Virus record (IMG/VR): IMGVR_UViG_3300042902_000101
Span: 1-38,224 of that record
Strand: one strand, 5' to 3'
From: a virus
DNA length: 38,224 nt
The translations under genes were made by a program, and so were the position numbers. Of the stretch, positions 6,703 to 16,055 are shown one piece after another. Below the pieces are notes generated by a model, which made no database searches, was not told the origin of the DNA, and saw only the letters and a program-made list of their open reading frames with translations. How positions within the stretch are numbered: the stretch's first letter is position 1; each line of letters begins with the position of its first letter.

Positions 6703-7132
6703 AATCAAATTGGAGGTTAACCCCTCAAACGCAAACCATGTCGAAGCCTTAAACGTATTTTTAAAAGCTTTAAACGGCGAAAAAGTAGAAGAAGCTACGG
6801 AAGTAAAAACTACTAAAGAGCCAGCCAAAAAAGCTAATAAAAAGACTACCAAGAAGGTAGAAGAAATCGAAGTAGTAGACGCCGAAGTAGTTACACCGGA
6901 AGAAGAAGCTATAAAAGAAACGCCGGAAGCACCAGCTAAAAAAGAAACAACTAAAGCCGCGGCCGAAGAAGTTACTATTAAGATAGAAGAAGTAAGGACC
7001 GCTTTATCTAAAAAGGTAGGGGACCACCGAGATTCTATAAAAAGCAAACTAACGGAACTAGGCGCTAACAATGTTACGTCTTTGGATTCGAAGCACTACC
7101 AAGTATTTTTAGACTTCCTTAACGAATTATAA
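6689..7132 (+). CDS. Hypothetical protein with an acidic/lysine-rich low-complexity linker
   Basis: 147 aa with a central KKANKKTTKKVEEIEVVDAEVVTPEEEAIKETPEAPAKKE. Both termini share a VFL(K/D)xLN motif. Confidence 0.6.
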   Translation: MKQIKIKLEVNPSNANHVEALNVFLKALNGEKVEEATEVKTTKEPAKKANKKTTKKVEEIEVVDAEVVTPEEEAIKETPEAPAKKETTKAAAEEVTIKIEEVRTALSKKVGDHRDSIKSKLTELGANNVTSLDSKHYQVFLDFLNEL

Positions 7133-8331
7133 TGGTAAAAGAAGTAATAGATCATAGCGTGCGAAAGCACGCTTTGCTATCGGCTTCCGGTGCTTCCAAG
7201 TGGATAAACTGCACCCCAAGCCCTAGACTAGAAGAAAACTTTACGGAAAAAGATTCGCCTTACGCTGAAGAAGGGACTTTGGCCCATGAGTTCGCCGAAA
7301 TTAACCTTAAATTACAATTGAAATTATTAACTAAAAAGGAGTACAAAGAAATTGCGGCCCCATTTTTAGAAAATAGATTCTATAGTAGTGAAATGGAAGA
7401 AGAAGTACAAAAACACGTAGACTACGTACGCCAGCAATTCGCCGAGGCAAAAAGAAAAACAAAAGACGCTAAACTTTTAATCGAAGAAAAAGTAGATTTA
7501 ACTTTCTTAATAGAAGACGGTTTCGGTACGTGCGACGATATAATAATCGCCGACGGGGTTCTGGAAGTTATCGACCTAAAATACGGTAAAGGCGTTAGAG
7601 TTTCGGCCGAAAATAATACGCAATTAAAACTATATGGGCTTGGGGCTTTGCGTGCCTTCGAATTAATGTACGATATACATACCGTAAAATTAACGATAGT
7701 ACAACCACGTTTAGACGCTATTTCTTCTTGGGATATATCGGCTTCGGAACTAAACACCTGGGGCGAAGAAGTGGTAAAACCTAAAGCGCTGGAAGCGTTC
7801 GCCGGCGAAGGCGAACAAACGCCAGGGAGTTGGTGCCGTTTTTGTAAAGCGAAAGCCCGATGCAAAGCCCTAGCTACTCAAAGTATGGAAGTCGCGAAAC
7901 ATGAATTTTCGGACCCTAAACTTTTAACCGACGCGGAAATTATAGACGTTTACGAAAAATCGTCCCAGATTATAGACTGGCTAAACGGAATATCTTCTTA
8001 TATTCTATCGGAAGCTTTAAAAGATAAGAAGTGGCCCGGCTATAAATTAGTAGAAGGTCGAAGCAATAGGGTAATAGTAAACCCGGAAAAGGTCGAAGAA
8101 GTGCTAGAAGCTAACCTTTTCGAAAAAGACCAATTTACGAACTCAAAACTAAAAGGCCTTGGGGATCTTGAAAAATTAATCGGTAAATCTAAATTTAATT
8201 TATTGATAGGGGAATTTATAGAAAAACCACCAGGGAAACCCACCCTAGTAGAAGAATCGGATAAAAGGCCGGCCTTCGGAATTAGCCAAGCGAAAGCAGA
8301 TTTTGGCGACGATGAAAATAATTTTAAATAA
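7132..8331 (+). CDS. Cas4/RecB-like PD-(D/E)XK nuclease (DUF2800-type)
   Basis: GTCDDIIIADGVLEVIDLKYGKG (D...D-x-K core). Cys at WINC plus CRFCKAKARC gives a four-Cys Fe-S pattern like Cas4. Sits next to a DUF2815 SSB and PolA. Confidence 0.75.
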   Translation: MVKEVIDHSVRKHALLSASGASKWINCTPSPRLEENFTEKDSPYAEEGTLAHEFAEINLKLQLKLLTKKEYKEIAAPFLENRFYSSEMEEEVQKHVDYVRQQFAEAKRKTKDAKLLIEEKVDLTFLIEDGFGTCDDIIIADGVLEVIDLKYGKGVRVSAENNTQLKLYGLGALRAFELMYDIHTVKLTIVQPRLDAISSWDISASELNTWGEEVVKPKALEAFAGEGEQTPGSWCRFCKAKARCKALATQSMEVAKHEFSDPKLLTDAEIIDVYEKSSQIIDWLNGISSYILSEALKDKKWPGYKLVEGRSNRVIVNPEKVEEVLEANLFEKDQFTNSKLKGLGDLEKLIGKSKFNLLIGEFIEKPPGKPTLVEESDKRPAFGISQAKADFGDDENNFK

Positions 8332-8421: not shown

Positions 8422-8952
8422 ATGTCTACAAAAGTAATTACCGGTAAAGTTAGATTTTCTTACGCTCACGTTTTCGAACCAGCAGCAATGGCAGAAGGCC
8501 AAGACAAAAAGTATAGTGTTTCTTTGATTATCCCTAAAAGCGATAAGAAAACTATCGAAAAGATTAAAGCGGCTATTGCCCAGGCTTTAGAAGAAGGAAA
8601 AGCGAAATTTGGGGGTACTATCCCAAAAAACTACAAAAATCCACTTCGCGACGGGGACGAAGAACGCGAAGACGACGAAAATTATATAGGTTGCATGTTC
8701 GTAAATGCGAATAGTACAAATAAGCCGGGCCTAATTGATATTAACCTAGACCCAATACTAGACAAAGAAGACTTTTATTCTGGTTGTTACGGTAGGGCTT
8801 CGGTAAATTTCTACGCTTTTAGTGTTTCTGGAAATAAAGGTATCGCTTGCGGACTTAACAATTTACAAAAAATGGAAGACGGCGAACGCTTAAGCGGCGG
8901 CGGTTCTTCGGCGGAATCGGATTTCGGCGACGATAGCGAAGATTTAGGATAA
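8422..8952 (+). CDS. Single-stranded DNA-binding protein (DUF2815-type)
   Basis: The N-terminus KVITGKVRFSYAHVFEP is typical of DUF2815. Gly-rich linker and an acidic tail SDFGDDSEDLG. Confidence 0.75.
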   Translation: MSTKVITGKVRFSYAHVFEPAAMAEGQDKKYSVSLIIPKSDKKTIEKIKAAIAQALEEGKAKFGGTIPKNYKNPLRDGDEEREDDENYIGCMFVNANSTNKPGLIDINLDPILDKEDFYSGCYGRASVNFYAFSVSGNKGIACGLNNLQKMEDGERLSGGGSSAESDFGDDSEDLG

Positions 8953-8973
8953 AATTTTTAACCTAAATATTAA

Positions 8974-9002
8974 ATAGATTTTACTATATTTGTAAAATCT
9001 AT
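8974..9002 (+). promoter_or_regulatory. Promoter with a -7 box TATATTTG (8985-8992) held inside a 10-bp inverted repeat
   Basis: ATAGATTTTA (8974-8983) pairs with TAAAATCTAT (8993-9002). The box ends 12 nt before the tRNA-like element. Confidence 0.5.
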
Positions 9003-9004
9003 TA

Positions 9005-9078
9005 CGGCGGGGAAGTGCTTTGGTAAGCACACTAGCGTATAACGCTAGGGGTTTAAGGTTCGATTCCCGACCCGCCAC
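9005..9078 (+). tRNA. tRNA-like element with non-canonical features; anticodon-position triplet AUA
   Basis: D arm GTGC-TTTGGTAA-GCAC (9015-9030). Anticodon arm CTAGC-GTATAAC-GCTAG (9032-9048). GGTTCGATTCC T-loop signature (9057-9067). Acceptor GGCGGG/CCCGCC. However, the T stem pairs only 3/5 and the acceptor-to-D-arm or acceptor-to-T-arm spacing is off by 1 nt in either register. Confidence 0.45.
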
Positions 9079-9085
9079 AAAATCT

Positions 9086-9123
9086 TAAACCATTCTTTAT
9101 AGTAGCTTTTAGAGAATGGTTTA
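9086..9123 (+). terminator. Hairpin terminator after the tRNA-like element
   Basis: TAAACCATTCT (9086-9096) pairs with AGAATGGTTTA (9113-9123). 11-bp perfect stem, but no long T-run. Confidence 0.55.
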
Positions 9124-9164
9124 TATAAAAGATTGATTTTTAAAAACAAGCAAAAACGCAAAAC

Positions 9165-11129
9165 ATGGCTTTTAAAAAATTGCATATTGATATAGAAACA
9201 TATAGTTCTATAGATATAATGGCTTCGGGCGCATATAAATATATGGAGTCTGTAGATTTTGAAGTTTTAATGGTGGCATACGCCTTCGATAACGAACCCG
9301 TTAAAATTATAGACCTAGCCCAAAACGAAAAACTTCCTTCATACTTTCTGGAAGCTTTACAAGATCCCGATATTATTAAAAAGGCGCACAATGCGAACTT
9401 TGAACGCCAGGCTTTTAAAAAGCTAGGTTTCGATATACCTACAGAATTTTGGGAATGTACGGCAATAAAAGCGGCCTATTGTGGTTTGCCTTTATCTTTG
9501 GACCAGGTTTCTAAAGCTATGAATTTAGAAGAAAAAGGAAAATCTTCGACGGGTAAAGCCCTTATACGTTTCTTTTCATGCCCCCAAAAACCAACAAAGA
9601 AAAACGGTTTCAGTTTCCGAAATTTTCCCGAAAACGATTTGGAAAAATGGGCCGAATTTAAAGATTATTGCATGCAAGACGTCGAGGCGGAACGCGAAAT
9701 TTCTAGGCGTTTGGAAATATACACAATCCCAAACTTTGAAAAAGTAAACTATATACTAGACCAAAAAATAAACGATAAGGGGATAAAAATAGACGTTAAT
9801 ATGGCGACTAACGCCGTACAAATGGATTCTATTTTTACGAACAAGTTATTAACTAGGGCCAAAGAATTAACAAATTTAGAAAACCCAAAAAGTCCGGCCC
9901 AGCTAAAGGAATGGTTGTCTTCCAAAATGCAAAAAGAGATAAAAACACTTGCGAAGGAAAATTTAAACGATTTAATCTTAGAAGCTGAAGCCGGGCCTAT
10001 TTTGGAGGTTCTAAAATTACGTAAGAAGTTAGCGAAATCTTCTACTAAAAAATATACCGCTATGCTTAATTGCGTTTGCGAAGACGTAAGGGCGCACGGT
10101 CTTTTTCAGTTCTACGGCGCAAGTAGGACGGGGCGCTGGGCCGGTCGACTTATCCAATTGCAGAACTTGCCGCAAAACCATATTACTTTATTGCAAGACG
10201 CCAGGGATTTAATAACTTCTAACGATTACGATCTGGCTACTATGATGTACGACGATATTTCTTCGCTACTATCGCAATTAATTAGGACCGCTTTCGTAGC
10301 TAAAGAAAACCATACTTTCGCGGTTGCCGATTTTAGCGCAATCGAAGCCCGCGTAATTGCATGGCTAGCCGACGAAAAATGGCGCCTAGAAGTTTTTAAT
10401 TCCCACGGTAAAATATACGAGGCTTCGGCGTCTATGATGTTTAACGTACCTATCGAACAAATTACCAAAGGGTCCGATTTAAGGGACAAAGGGAAAATTG
10501 CGGAATTAGCCCTCGGGTACCAGGGCGCACTTGGGGCCTTAAAACAAATGGGCGGCGAAAAAATGGGCCTATCCGATATAGAAATGGCTACAATCGTAAA
10601 AAAATGGCGAAAAGCGAACCCCGCAATAGTTGGACTTTGGAAGGAAATAGAAGATTGCGCTAATAGGGCAATCAAAACCAAAAAAGTAGTAGTTTCAAAG
10701 CATAAAAACCTAGAATTTGATTCCGACGGGGACGTTTTAACTATAAAGCTACCTTCTGGTAGAAAATTATTCTACCAAAAACCTTCTTTTTCTATAAATA
10801 AGTGGGGTAAAGAGTCTATAAAATATAAGGGTATGAGTCAAACGACCCGCCAATGGGTTTACGTAGATACCTACGGCGGTAAATTGGTAGAAAATATAAT
10901 TCAAGCGATCGCTAGGGATTTACTGGCCTATTCCATGCAAAGAATAGACGTCGAAGGGTTCGATATAGTTATGCACGTACACGACGAAGCCGTTTGCGAA
11001 ATACCAAAAAGGCACGCAAACGCTAAACTTGAATTTATGTGCGAAATAATGGGCGAACCCGTACCCTGGGCGCCAGGTTTACCCCTTACGGCCGACGGCT
11101 ATATTACTGACTTTTACAAAAAAGATTAA
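9165..11129 (+). CDS. Family A DNA polymerase with 3'-5' proofreading exonuclease
   Basis: Exo motifs HIDIETYS, HNANFE and YCMQDVEAE. Pol motif A is DFSAIEARVIAW, motif B is RDKGKIAELALGYQG, motif C is VMHVHDEAV. Confidence 0.92.
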   Translation: MAFKKLHIDIETYSSIDIMASGAYKYMESVDFEVLMVAYAFDNEPVKIIDLAQNEKLPSYFLEALQDPDIIKKAHNANFERQAFKKLGFDIPTEFWECTAIKAAYCGLPLSLDQVSKAMNLEEKGKSSTGKALIRFFSCPQKPTKKNGFSFRNFPENDLEKWAEFKDYCMQDVEAEREISRRLEIYTIPNFEKVNYILDQKINDKGIKIDVNMATNAVQMDSIFTNKLLTRAKELTNLENPKSPAQLKEWLSSKMQKEIKTLAKENLNDLILEAEAGPILEVLKLRKKLAKSSTKKYTAMLNCVCEDVRAHGLFQFYGASRTGRWAGRLIQLQNLPQNHITLLQDARDLITSNDYDLATMMYDDISSLLSQLIRTAFVAKENHTFAVADFSAIEARVIAWLADEKWRLEVFNSHGKIYEASASMMFNVPIEQITKGSDLRDKGKIAELALGYQGALGALKQMGGEKMGLSDIEMATIVKKWRKANPAIVGLWKEIEDCANRAIKTKKVVVSKHKNLEFDSDGDVLTIKLPSGRKLFYQKPSFSINKWGKESIKYKGMSQTTRQWVYVDTYGGKLVENIIQAIARDLLAYSMQRIDVEGFDIVMHVHDEAVCEIPKRHANAKLEFMCEIMGEPVPWAPGLPLTADGYITDFYKKD

Positions 11130-11132
11130 TTT

Positions 11133-13523
11133 ATGAAATACGATGGACTATTAAATTTAGCTACTGGCATGAGTGCCAAGACTAAAGTATGGAAAAATAA
11201 GAAGATAACATGGTCGAACCTGGTAGCCAAGTTAAAAGAAGAAAACAAAACAAACGAAACATATAAAGAATTTATAGCGGCTTCGAAGGAAGACCAATCT
11301 AAAATAAAAGACGTAGGCGGCTACGTTGGTGGGTATCTACGCCAGGGGAAAAGAAGCCCTAAAAATGTAGTCCACCGCCAACTAATGACCCTGGATATAG
11401 ATTTCGCGCATACGGCTTTCTGGGACGATTTTTGCATGCAATTTTCTAACGCTGCGGTTATACATGCCACGCATAAACATTGCGAAGCCGACCCAAGGTA
11501 TAGACTTGTAATTCCAATGTCAAGGGAGGCGACGCCGGACGAATACGTAGCAGTTTCGCGACAAATAGCGGGAATTTTAGGGATAGATTTATTTGATAAT
11601 ACTACTTTCGAAACCAATAGATTAATGTTCTGGCCTTCGAATCCTAAAGACGTAGAATACTATTGTAGATTCCAAGACGGGCCGTGGGTCGATGTCGACG
11701 AAGTACTTAATACATATATCGACTGGAAAGATACAAGCCTTTGGCCTACGGCAGAACGCGACCTTAAAAACGTCTTCGATATTTCCAAGAAACAAGAAGA
11801 TCCAGAAGATAAAAAAGGAATCGTTGGGGCATTTTGTAGGACTTTCGGGATTTCGGACGCAATATCTACTTTTTTAAAAGAAGCTTACGTAGAAGCGACC
11901 GAAGGACGATATACTTATACTGGGGGATCTACGGCGGCGGGTTTGATTTTATACGACGATAAATTCGCATATTCACACCACGGGACCGACCCATGCGGGG
12001 GTAAATTGTGTAACGCGTTCGACCTGGTTCGAATCCATTTATTTAGCCATTTAGATTCCGAAGAAGGAAATTCTTCTACAAAATCGAAAAGTTTTGGGGC
12101 AATGGAAGACTTCGCTAGGAAAAACAAAGACGTTAAAAAAACAATCGCCGGCGAACATTTAGCGAGTTCTAAATATGATTTTATCGACCCGGTAGATTCC
12201 GAAGCCGAAGAAATAGAAGCAGCTTCCGAAGAAGATATTAATTGGCTGGTCGACCTAGAAACCGATACGCGAGGGAATTATTTATCTACGGCGATAAATA
12301 TAAATACAATACTAGCCAACGATTCCAGGCTTAAGGGGGTTTTTAAACAAAACGACTTCGACGGGAAAAGGTACGTTTTTACTAGCCTACCGTGGCGAAG
12401 GGTAACTAGGCCGGAACCGGTAAAAAATGTCGACTACTCGGGGGTTCGAAATTATATCGAATCTATTTACGGGATTTCTGGGACTTTAAAAATAGACGAT
12501 TCCCTGGCGCTAGAGTTCGAAAAACAATCTTTTCACCCTATAAAAGAATATTTATCTTCTTTAAAGTGGGACCAGGTAAAAAGGGTCGATTCCCTTCTAG
12601 TGGAATATTTCGGGGCCGACGATAATATTTATACGCACGAAGCTATTAGAAAAATGTTAGTCGCTGCGGTTGCTCGAATATTTAAACCCGGTTGCAAGTT
12701 CGACCTAGTACTTACTTTAATAGGGGATCAAGGAACTAAAAAAAGTAGTTTTATTAAAAAATTAGGTAAAGAATGGTTTTCCGATACTTTTATGACCGTA
12801 CACGGAAAAGAAGCGCTAGAACAAATTCAAGGGGCTTGGCTTATTGAAATGGCGGAACTATCCGGGTTACGAAAAGCCGAAGTAGAATCTATAAAACATT
12901 TTATTTCTAAACAAGAAGACGCTTTTCGACCAGCTTACGCCAGGACTTCCGAAACCTTCCAAAGACAATGCGTATTTTTTGGGACAACTAACAAAAAAGA
13001 CTTTTTAACGGACCCGTCCGGAAATAGAAGATTCATGCCTATAGACGTAAATAAAAACCAAGTAGTTAAAGACGTTTGGCAAGACCTGGACGCCGAAATA
13101 GACCAAATATGGGCCGAGGCGGTCCACTTATTTAAGAAGGGCGAAACCTTATTTTTAAGCGACGAAGCGGAAACGATAGCGAAAGCGGAACAAAGAAACC
13201 ATTGCGAAGTAGACGATCGAAAAGGACTTATCGAAGACTATCTTTACCAGCCTTTACCCGAAAACTGGCCTACTTTAGATATTCACGAAAGACGAATATT
13301 TTTGGAAAACCCAGAAGGAAAAGGAACGAACCAAAAAGACTACGTTTGTATGGCCGAAATATGGTGCGAATGTCTAAATAAGGATAAGGAAAATATGAGC
13401 CGATACAATACGCGCGAAATTAACGATATAATGAAGGGCCTAGAAGACTGGGAGTATAGCAAGTCTACGAAGAATTTCCCCCTATATGGAAAACAGAAAT
13501 ACTACGCTAGAAAACTATATTAA
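11133..13523 (+). CDS. Primase-helicase: VirE_N-like primase domain fused to a VirE (virulence-associated protein E) P-loop domain
   Basis: N-terminal LMTLDIDF...HATHKH...RYRLVIP. C-terminal Walker A LIGDQGTKKSSF and Walker B-like WLIEMAEL. Confidence 0.8.
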   Translation: MKYDGLLNLATGMSAKTKVWKNKKITWSNLVAKLKEENKTNETYKEFIAASKEDQSKIKDVGGYVGGYLRQGKRSPKNVVHRQLMTLDIDFAHTAFWDDFCMQFSNAAVIHATHKHCEADPRYRLVIPMSREATPDEYVAVSRQIAGILGIDLFDNTTFETNRLMFWPSNPKDVEYYCRFQDGPWVDVDEVLNTYIDWKDTSLWPTAERDLKNVFDISKKQEDPEDKKGIVGAFCRTFGISDAISTFLKEAYVEATEGRYTYTGGSTAAGLILYDDKFAYSHHGTDPCGGKLCNAFDLVRIHLFSHLDSEEGNSSTKSKSFGAMEDFARKNKDVKKTIAGEHLASSKYDFIDPVDSEAEEIEAASEEDINWLVDLETDTRGNYLSTAININTILANDSRLKGVFKQNDFDGKRYVFTSLPWRRVTRPEPVKNVDYSGVRNYIESIYGISGTLKIDDSLALEFEKQSFHPIKEYLSSLKWDQVKRVDSLLVEYFGADDNIYTHEAIRKMLVAAVARIFKPGCKFDLVLTLIGDQGTKKSSFIKKLGKEWFSDTFMTVHGKEALEQIQGAWLIEMAELSGLRKAEVESIKHFISKQEDAFRPAYARTSETFQRQCVFFGTTNKKDFLTDPSGNRRFMPIDVNKNQVVKDVWQDLDAEIDQIWAEAVHLFKKGETLFLSDEAETIAKAEQRNHCEVDDRKGLIEDYLYQPLPENWPTLDIHERRIFLENPEGKGTNQKDYVCMAEIWCECLNKDKENMSRYNTREINDIMKGLEDWEYSKSTKNFPLYGKQKYYARKLY

Positions 13524-15193: not shown

Positions 15194-15235
15194 AAAAAAA
15201 GTTTTTATTTGGTTATTATTTTGTATATTTACAAA
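15194..15235 (+). promoter_or_regulatory. Conserved promoter P3 (AAAAAAAGTTTTTATTTGGTTATTATTTTGTATATTTACAAAATAA)
   Basis: -7-like box TATATTTA at 15224-15231. A TTTG lies about 20 nt upstream. Shares ATTTACAAAATAAT with P2. Confidence 0.5.
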
Positions 15236-15253
15236 ATAATAAATACTAAAAAC

Positions 15254-15673
15254 ATGAATAAGCAAAACCAAATAGACCAACAATATTTAAGAATGGCCCA
15301 AGTCTGGGCCGATTCTTCCTATTGCCAACGAAAAAAAGTCGGTTGTTTAATAGTTAAAAACCAAACTATTATATCGGACGGGTACAACGGGACGCCAAGG
15401 GGTTTCGATAATGTTTGCGAAAGTTCCGAAGACGGCGAAACTTTGTGGCATGTTTTGCACGCCGAGGCGAACGCCCTAACCAAAATAGCCAGGTCTAACC
15501 AAAGCAGCGAAGGGGCTACTTTATATACCACGCTTTCGCCTTGCAAAGATTGCAGTAAATTAATACTTCAGTCGGGAATAACTAGAGTAGTTTATTTAAA
15601 CGATCTATCGGATAGGTCCGGACTAGATTTCCTTTTTGAAGCGGGGATAGATACGATAAAAGGCCATGTTTAA
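15254..15673 (+). CDS. dCMP (deoxycytidylate) deaminase
   Basis: Zinc motifs HAEANAL and PCKDCSKLI. ATG 15254 is preferred over the TTG at 15209, which would lie inside promoter P3. Confidence 0.85.
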   Translation: MNKQNQIDQQYLRMAQVWADSSYCQRKKVGCLIVKNQTIISDGYNGTPRGFDNVCESSEDGETLWHVLHAEANALTKIARSNQSSEGATLYTTLSPCKDCSKLILQSGITRVVYLNDLSDRSGLDFLFEAGIDTIKGHV

Positions 15674-16055
15674 AATAATTCCAAATAAAAAGGACGGACT
15701 TTGTAGGGCGTATAGGTGCAAAAATAACCACCCTAAAAAAGACAAACTTTGCCCGAAACATAGAAAACGCATGCAAAAAGAGTCGGACCCCCTGGCCTAT
15801 ACTTTTAATCTTCTGAAATCGAACGCGAACCGACGAAATAAGGTTTTCGAATTATCTATCGAAGAATTTAAAATCTTTTGCGACGAATCGAACTACCTAG
15901 AATTAAAAGGCAAAAAAGGAAGTTCCGCTTCTATCGACCGCATAGACCCAGAAAAAGGGTATTCCCTGGATAACATACAAATAATGTCCTTATCTAATAA
16001 TTCTAAAAAGATGCACCAGGACAAAACCAACAAGGAAGAAAGCCTTCCTTTTTAG
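15666..16055 (+). CDS. HNH-type endonuclease (small, free-standing)
   Basis: N-terminal Cys/His cluster CRAYRCKNNHPKKDKLCPKH. C-terminal SIDRIDPEKGYSLDNIQIMSLSNNSKK, typical of short phage HNH proteins. Confidence 0.6.
   Translation: MFKIIPNKKDGLCRAYRCKNNHPKKDKLCPKHRKRMQKESDPLAYTFNLLKSNANRRNKVFELSIEEFKIFCDESNYLELKGKKGSSASIDRIDPEKGYSLDNIQIMSLSNNSKKMHQDKTNKEESLPF

Follow-up and report, generated by a model that had tools for sequence, protein, structure and literature searches.

The spacer between the genes for a single-stranded DNA-binding protein (SSB) and a family A DNA polymerase (PolA) of this phage holds a tRNA-shaped RNA that, judged from its orthologues, is real and selected, and that very probably does not decode. 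We put at about even odds (roughly 0.5) the reading that this non-decoding RNA, selected in the SSB–PolA spacer of one clade of Flavobacteriia-type siphophages, is a signal in cis for RNase P and RNase Z. This is the best-supported reading of the element, with a cleavage mechanism that we infer.

The window, by which we mean the whole stretch of 38,224 bases analysed here, is a complete IMG/VR phage genome with terminal repeats and ~36% G+C. All of its genes lie on the + strand, and its closest named relative is Croceibacter phage P2559Y, whose host belongs to the Flavobacteriaceae. The replication module and the parts of the element are as follows.

7132–8331, + strand: DUF2800/PD-(D/E)XK nuclease, the first gene listed in the replication module
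8422–8952, + strand: Enc34-type ssDNA-binding protein (SSB; Pfam PF10991, E = 4.5e-75), the gene upstream of the element
SSB–PolA spacer, 212 nt: harbours the tRNA-shaped element
8973–9003, + strand: upstream hairpin, 12 bp (−11.7 kcal/mol, z = −5.8), ending 2 nt before the element
9005–9078, + strand: tRNA-shaped RNA element (ARAGORN; Rfam, 31.5 bits; family model R1, 39.7 bits; orthologues L063 and L076)
9006–9011/9071–9076: acceptor, GGCGGG/CCCGCC, 6 bp; a second register extends it to 7 bp, mismatched at C1:A72, and puts one additional base ahead of the D arm
9015–9030: D arm, GUGC-UUUGGUAA-GCAC, with a perfect stem (9015–9018/9027–9030)
9032–9048: hairpin at the anticodon position, with a perfect 5-bp stem (9032–9036/9044–9048), the loop GUAUAAC and the triplet AUA at 9039–9041
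Variable region, 5 nt: GGGUU
9054–9070: degenerate T arm, UAAGG-UUCGAUU-CCCGA, with 3 of 5 stem positions paired
9057–9067: T loop, GGTTCGATTCC
9077: discriminator A
9078–9082, + strand: CAAAA tail after the discriminator
9081–9134 (core 9086–9123), + strand: AT-rich downstream hairpin (−16.8 kcal/mol, z = −5.0) without a U tract, before the PolA start
9165–11129, + strand: family A DNA polymerase (PolA; Pfam PF00476), the gene downstream of the element
After PolA: VapE-type primase-helicase, then SNF2 helicase

The arm-by-arm anatomy had been proposed in an earlier, sequence-only reading of this DNA, and it was correct, because tRNA calls, direct reading of the arms and folding against shuffled sequences agree. 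The tRNA searches which that reading had suggested converge on the same element: ARAGORN calls a tRNA-Tyr with anticodon ata at 9005–9078, the sole tRNA that it finds in the whole 38-kb genome, and Rfam RF00005 matches 9006–9077 at a borderline 31.5 bits (gathering score, 29), in an alignment with two non-standard T-stem pairs and one deleted acceptor position. The whole element folds at −33 kcal/mol (z = −4.1 against shuffles). A second T-loop motif in the window, at 12026, lacks an acceptor helix and falls within the primase gene.

Orthologues in the same slot were found at two related viral loci, L063 and L076, by searches with the 3' half of the element and with its first 15 bases. The PolA of L063 is 63% identical to that of the window. 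Across the three elements, 58 of 81 columns are invariant, and the invariant set includes the entire acceptor, the D stem and GGTTCGA(T/C)TCCCGACCCGCCAC. In the anticodon stem, two base pairs are exchanged by compensatory changes (A-U to G-C and C-G to A-U); the loops that it closes read GUAUAAC, UUCCAGA and an 8-nt UUUUCAGG. Pairing in the T stem is weak throughout, at 53% of cells in the three elements. Between L063 and L076, whose third codon positions are 12–21% different, there are 0 changes in 37 stem nucleotides and 9 in the other 37 nucleotides. A variant from an RNA library (95–99% identical to the window) has two substitutions within the element, both at unpaired positions (9012 and 9031). 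Together, these comparisons show that selection acts on the fold and on some of its letters but not on the “anticodon,” which argues against decoding and against pseudogene status alike. On this evidence, the arm at the anticodon position is a purely structural hairpin whose loop drifts freely.

The element belongs to a family. An alignment of polymerases retrieved 54 related viral loci, and the order SSB, tRNA-like element, PolA is found in the window and in 15 of them (16 syntenic loci in the same polymerase clade), with an SSB homologue 5' of the element in 15 of 15 related loci tested. Within the sub-clade whose PolA is at least 54% identical, the motif GGTTCGAnTCC occurs in nearly every SSB–PolA spacer; in the spacers of more distant loci, where PolA mostly abuts the preceding gene, it was not found. 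Each element anchored on this motif has a T stem of 5 bp, perfect or nearly so, and a 7-bp acceptor whose sequence differs greatly from case to case, and the family as a whole shares the acceptor, the GGTTCGAnTCC T arm and a D arm whose loop contains GG; an N73-CAAA sequence is common to most members, as the alignment and the flanks show. In an alignment of 18 sequences, the acceptor and T arm pair in 96.7% of cells, compared with 44–54% in slid controls, a value inflated for the acceptor because its 5' strands were placed partly by complementarity; T stems, which were picked without complementarity, pair in 97.8% of cells. The covariation score of acceptor plus T arm is 0.908 versus 0.14–0.21 in the slid controls, with both-sided changes at all 7 acceptor pairs and at 3 T-stem pairs, and covariation is confined to these two helices. 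The conservation and covariation in relatives that the earlier reading had named as a check are thus present, the element being kept and the covariation heavy.

A covariance model of the family, R1, gives 23 matches in 426 kb searched on both strands. All are on the gene strand, all lie in the SSB–PolA spacer save one second copy (L061), and L061, L063, L076 and L019 are outside the training set. In four complete genomes, the match to the tRNA model is unique to this element. The middle of the molecule varies widely. The anticodon arm is missing in elements of 56–68 nt (L007, L011a, L013a, L020b and L061), is swapped for long hairpins in elements of 93–125 nt (L006, L009, L010, L004 and L020a) and is disrupted in those of the P2559Y type. 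Only L057, in the same slot, carries a canonical arm, that of a tRNA-Arg(UCU) scoring 64 bits, and the presence of a canonical tRNA there suggests that the family probably descends from real tRNA genes. Because the middle is variable but the acceptor, D arm and T arm are kept, the conserved core is the acceptor plus the D/T “elbow.” Acceptor and elbow are what RNase P, RNase Z and the CCA-adding enzyme recognize in a tRNA.

The distance from the element to the PolA ATG is 19–39 nt in most of the compact spacers and ~550 nt in P2559Y-type phages, and several relatives have two elements in tandem. A metagenome scan for further close relatives gave one distant locus only; a pattern search on the anticodon arm found no relatives, no look-alike turned up among GenBank phages, and the remaining matches to the 3' half of the element are GC-rich chance hits.

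Some members are unusual in themselves. The L006 contig has, 8 kb past its first element, a second one (L061:1011–1079; Rfam, 53 bits), which lacks an anticodon arm, bears the same ACAAAA tail and precedes a 92-aa ORF by 30 nt, so the elements are not strictly limited to the polymerase junction. A weak member (L019:2179–2252, 19.7 bits) follows an SSB gene, with a 74-aa ORF intervening before PolA. The 122-nt element at L004:2103–2224 combines an acceptor (G3:U70, A73) and a T arm with three hairpins where the D and anticodon arms would be; it matches tmRNA below threshold, at 23.6 bits, and ~770 nt of non-coding DNA separate it from PolA.

What remains is to ask what such an RNA could be for. 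Annotation pipelines would file the window element as “tRNA-Tyr(ATA)” and take it for an adaptation to codon usage, which is probably wrong. The sequence-only reading had already held that this is not an ordinary decoding tRNA, and the relatives bear it out: the orthologous loops carry AUA, CCA or an 8-nt sequence, and family members are often without an anticodon arm. It is this lack of conservation of the “anticodon” that makes the element very probably non-decoding. A working tRNA with anticodon AUA, reading UAU (Tyr), or UAU, UAC and UAA if A34 were deaminated, is accordingly the least probable of the readings considered here. ARAGORN and Rfam do both make a tRNA call, and a 5-bp stem, a 7-nt loop, U33 and A37 are all in place, but the score is the lowest tRNA score of the family (31.5 bits versus 35–64), the T stem is only 3/5 paired, the acceptor has only 6 bp, and the orthologues, on the same scaffold, have CCA or a loop of 8 nt. 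Bacterial tRNA-Tyr has a long variable arm and G34-U35-A36; the element lacks that arm and that G34, having the 5-nt GGGUU and an A at position 34. Further, TAT is not favored over TAC in the window (239 versus 195), no signs of stop-codon recoding were seen, and no phage TadA was found. Folding predicts that G32:C38 and U33:A37 may pair to leave a triloop, which weighs little because such closure is also possible in silico in many real tRNAs. Decay of a tRNA gene to a pseudogene with no present function, which the earlier reading had also entertained, is only slightly less improbable. It would suit the degenerate T stem, the short acceptor, the odd anticodon, the borderline model score and the further degradation of the T region in L063 and L076. 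But decay does not leave stems without a substitution (0/37 between L063 and L076) at 12–21% synonymous divergence, nor does it account for two compensatory changes in the anticodon stem, for scaffold letters kept between phages whose PolA proteins are only 63% identical or for a slot that is filled throughout the clade.

Several other candidates were tried and rejected. A suppressor or recoding tRNA gains nothing from the window, L063 or L076, where read-through of TGA or TAG leaves genes no longer. Supply of a rare codon does not fit the unbiased use of TAT and TAC. Conversion of A34 to inosine by a phage deaminase fails on its candidate, since the product of 15209–15673 fits a ComEB/dCMP deaminase (77.9 bits) and reaches 30.6 bits against a cut-off of 150 for TadA. 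A tRNA on the minus strand, where the reverse complement of the loop would supply UAU, the anticodon for ATA, is taken for a coincidence because the T-loop motif, all genes and the ARAGORN call are on the + strand. An attP site or a copy of a host tRNA is discounted by the covariation of both acceptor strands and by the 21-nt 3' half of the element, which occurs in none of 185,579 bacterial genomes. As observations in their own right, ATA is the most frequent Ile codon of the whole window (410, versus 339 for ATT and 104 for ATC), TAA accounts for 34 of 39 stop codons, and the ComEB-like gene of the dCMP-deaminase family is followed by an endonuclease VII/HNH-like gene at 15666–16055.

It has also been suggested, in the sequence-only reading, that the element is a self-contained unit with its own promoter and terminator. 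This is not supported. The putative −7 box, TATATTTG (8985–8992), sits in the loop and 3' arm of the upstream hairpin; its pattern TAnnTTTG occurs 64 times on the two strands of the window versus 45 expected, which we judge no more than chance, and 18 of 21 related elements have no such box upstream. Moreover, the 2-nt gap between the upstream hairpin and the element offers no space for a separate promoter. The octamer TATATTTG is present again at both orthologous loci, at −41 rather than −21, so a separate promoter, though unsupported, is still conceivable. As to a terminator, neither flanking hairpin of the window element is followed by a U tract, and a terminator scan found nothing on the + strand at the downstream hairpin.

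The upstream hairpin itself is a recurrent companion of the element. A strong hairpin lies 1–6 nt 5' of the element in L006, L009, L014, L057, L001, L012 and L063, the sequences being unrelated, and between L063 and L076 the upstream hairpin is identical, whereas the U tract behind it is not kept. P2559Y-type phages have a comparable hairpin immediately 3' of the element, with a compensatory change in L012; a hairpin in that position is absent in L006, L009, L014 and L057. A marine metatranscriptome variant, read from a low-depth contig with possible errors, differs between 8977 and 9004: 10 nt are inserted in the loop of the upstream hairpin, T8985G alters the putative −7 box and one nucleotide is deleted at 9004.

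The arrangement of these parts suggests how a processing signal in cis could work. The element would be transcribed within the replication operon. Host RNase P would cut at its 5' end, so that the SSB message would end in the hairpin 2 nt upstream, and host RNase Z would cut after the discriminator, freeing a PolA message that would start with the A-rich CAAAA leader. The outcome would be that an abundant SSB message and a scarce polymerase message become uncoupled in fate. We favor this reading because the element occupies a fixed slot between a gene whose product is needed in bulk (SSB) and one whose product is needed at a low level (PolA), because in many members a hairpin ends 1–6 nt before it, one that is unchanged between L063 and L076 even though the U tract is lost, because a short A-rich leader connects it to the PolA start in compact spacers (19–39 nt) and because exactly the features required by RNase P and RNase Z are retained. 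The flanking SSB and PolA genes are on the same strand as the element, and in the one metatranscriptome run with the 95–99% identical variant, which consists of contigs only and possibly contains DNA, a contig spans the SSB gene into the element, although this does not prove a single transcript; the end of that contig at 9066 and the lack of cover over 9067–9188 carry no evidential weight. Some observations weigh against a processing signal. The window and both orthologues have a degenerate version of the T stem, a helix read by RNase P and RNase Z; the tandem elements of several relatives resemble a small tRNA-like array more than punctuation; ~550 nt separate element and PolA in P2559Y-type phages; the acceptor and D-stem sequences are conserved between the window and L063 beyond the need of a mere shape signal; and both orthologues also contain the octamer TATATTTG.

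The degenerate T stem, the tandem elements and the conservation of the scaffold sequence leave real room for a mimic that acts in trans. The RNA would then be stable, processed and CCA-tailed, and would titrate, or simply bind, a host factor, with the variable arm as a module for specificity or an arms race. Candidate factors include a nuclease or toxin of tRNA-directed defense, an enzyme that modifies tRNAs and an aminoacyl-tRNA synthetase. We consider such a mimic unlikely, at perhaps one chance in five. Fast-changing loops on fixed stems (L063 versus L076) and the high diversity of the arm at the anticodon position in the family speak for it, and conservation of acceptor and D-stem sequence suits recognition by a protein; some relatives have tandem pairs of elements, and at least four combine A73 with the alanine identity pair G3:U70, one of which scores as tmRNA-like. 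But loop divergence, at ~24%, is close to the neutral 12–21%, so positive selection is not required, and the single copy per genome, the fixed slot and the adjoining hairpin speak against it. Nor was a gene for tRNA repair or tRNA modification found, the deaminase at 15209–15673 being of the dCMP type, not TadA. A decoy for anticodon nucleases, as proposed by the sequence-only reading, is disfavored because such a decoy should retain the anticodon loop, yet the loop is the least conserved part of the element and is missing in many relatives. In a broader form, and with the same low probability, the family could be an undescribed class of phage tRNA mimics that keep only acceptor and elbow and act as effectors in trans, the interchangeable arm at the anticodon position conferring specificity. 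Its members would engage RNase P and RNase Z, the CCA-adding enzyme and, in some cases, alanyl-tRNA synthetase, and might serve, for example, as sponges for tRNA-directed immunity or as regulators of polymerase synthesis.

Several known systems resemble the element. In plant mitochondria, RNase P and RNase Z produce mRNA ends that fall at the borders of t-elements (Forner et al. 2007, PMC1920247), and mitochondrial tRNA punctuation follows the same principle. Like t-elements, the phage element has a non-canonical cloverleaf with a GGTTCRANYCC T-arm motif, an acceptor helix and no decoding role, and lies between or beside protein-coding genes of the same strand. Unlike them, it belongs to a bacteriophage operon, occupies one fixed SSB–PolA slot instead of dispersed sites and is only predicted to be processed, and the window copy retains the full outline of a cloverleaf. 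In MALAT1, the tRNA-like fold of mascRNA, embedded in a longer transcript, recruits RNase P and RNase Z, and an adjacent 3' structure protects the upstream RNA. By analogy, the phage element would share the use of a tRNA-like fold for end formation and the protection of upstream RNA; mascRNA differs in being eukaryotic and nuclear and in having a triple-helix protector in place of a plain hairpin, and the two are not homologous. The tRNA-like domain of tmRNA also has an acceptor and T arm without a decoding anticodon arm, and the relatives L004 and those of the P2559Y type resemble it in G3:U70 and A73. The window element, in contrast, has C3:G70 and lacks both a tag reading frame and pseudoknots, and no tmRNA was called in the window by ARAGORN. 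With ordinary phage tRNA genes (RF00005), it shares a score above the Rfam gathering score and an ARAGORN call, but it differs from them in an anticodon that varies among orthologues, a defective T stem and acceptor, an isotype mismatch and relatives without an anticodon arm.

If the processing model is true, Bacteroidota phages set the ratio of SSB to polymerase expression by tRNA punctuation, a mechanism known from organelles. Our search of the literature, which covered it in part, found no paper on such elements in phage replication operons. Croceibacter phage P2559Y, which bears a family member that carries no RefSeq annotation, offers a cultivable test system, and the family as a whole provides natural examples of the minimal tRNA features needed by host processing enzymes.

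Two further sequences deserve mention. The 20-nt GGTTCGATTCCCGACCCGCC is also found in an unrelated, GC-rich viral contig (L062:12720–12820), where a GGCGGG...CCCGCC helix surrounds a middle that is not tRNA-like; ARAGORN makes no tRNA call there. The ~550-nt non-coding spacer of P2559Y-type phages (L001:2216–2772, L012:1926–2500 and L016:1935–2500) gives no Rfam match. It consists of long invariant blocks with variable insertions between them, shows a compensatory change in its first hairpin and may be an undescribed structured RNA.
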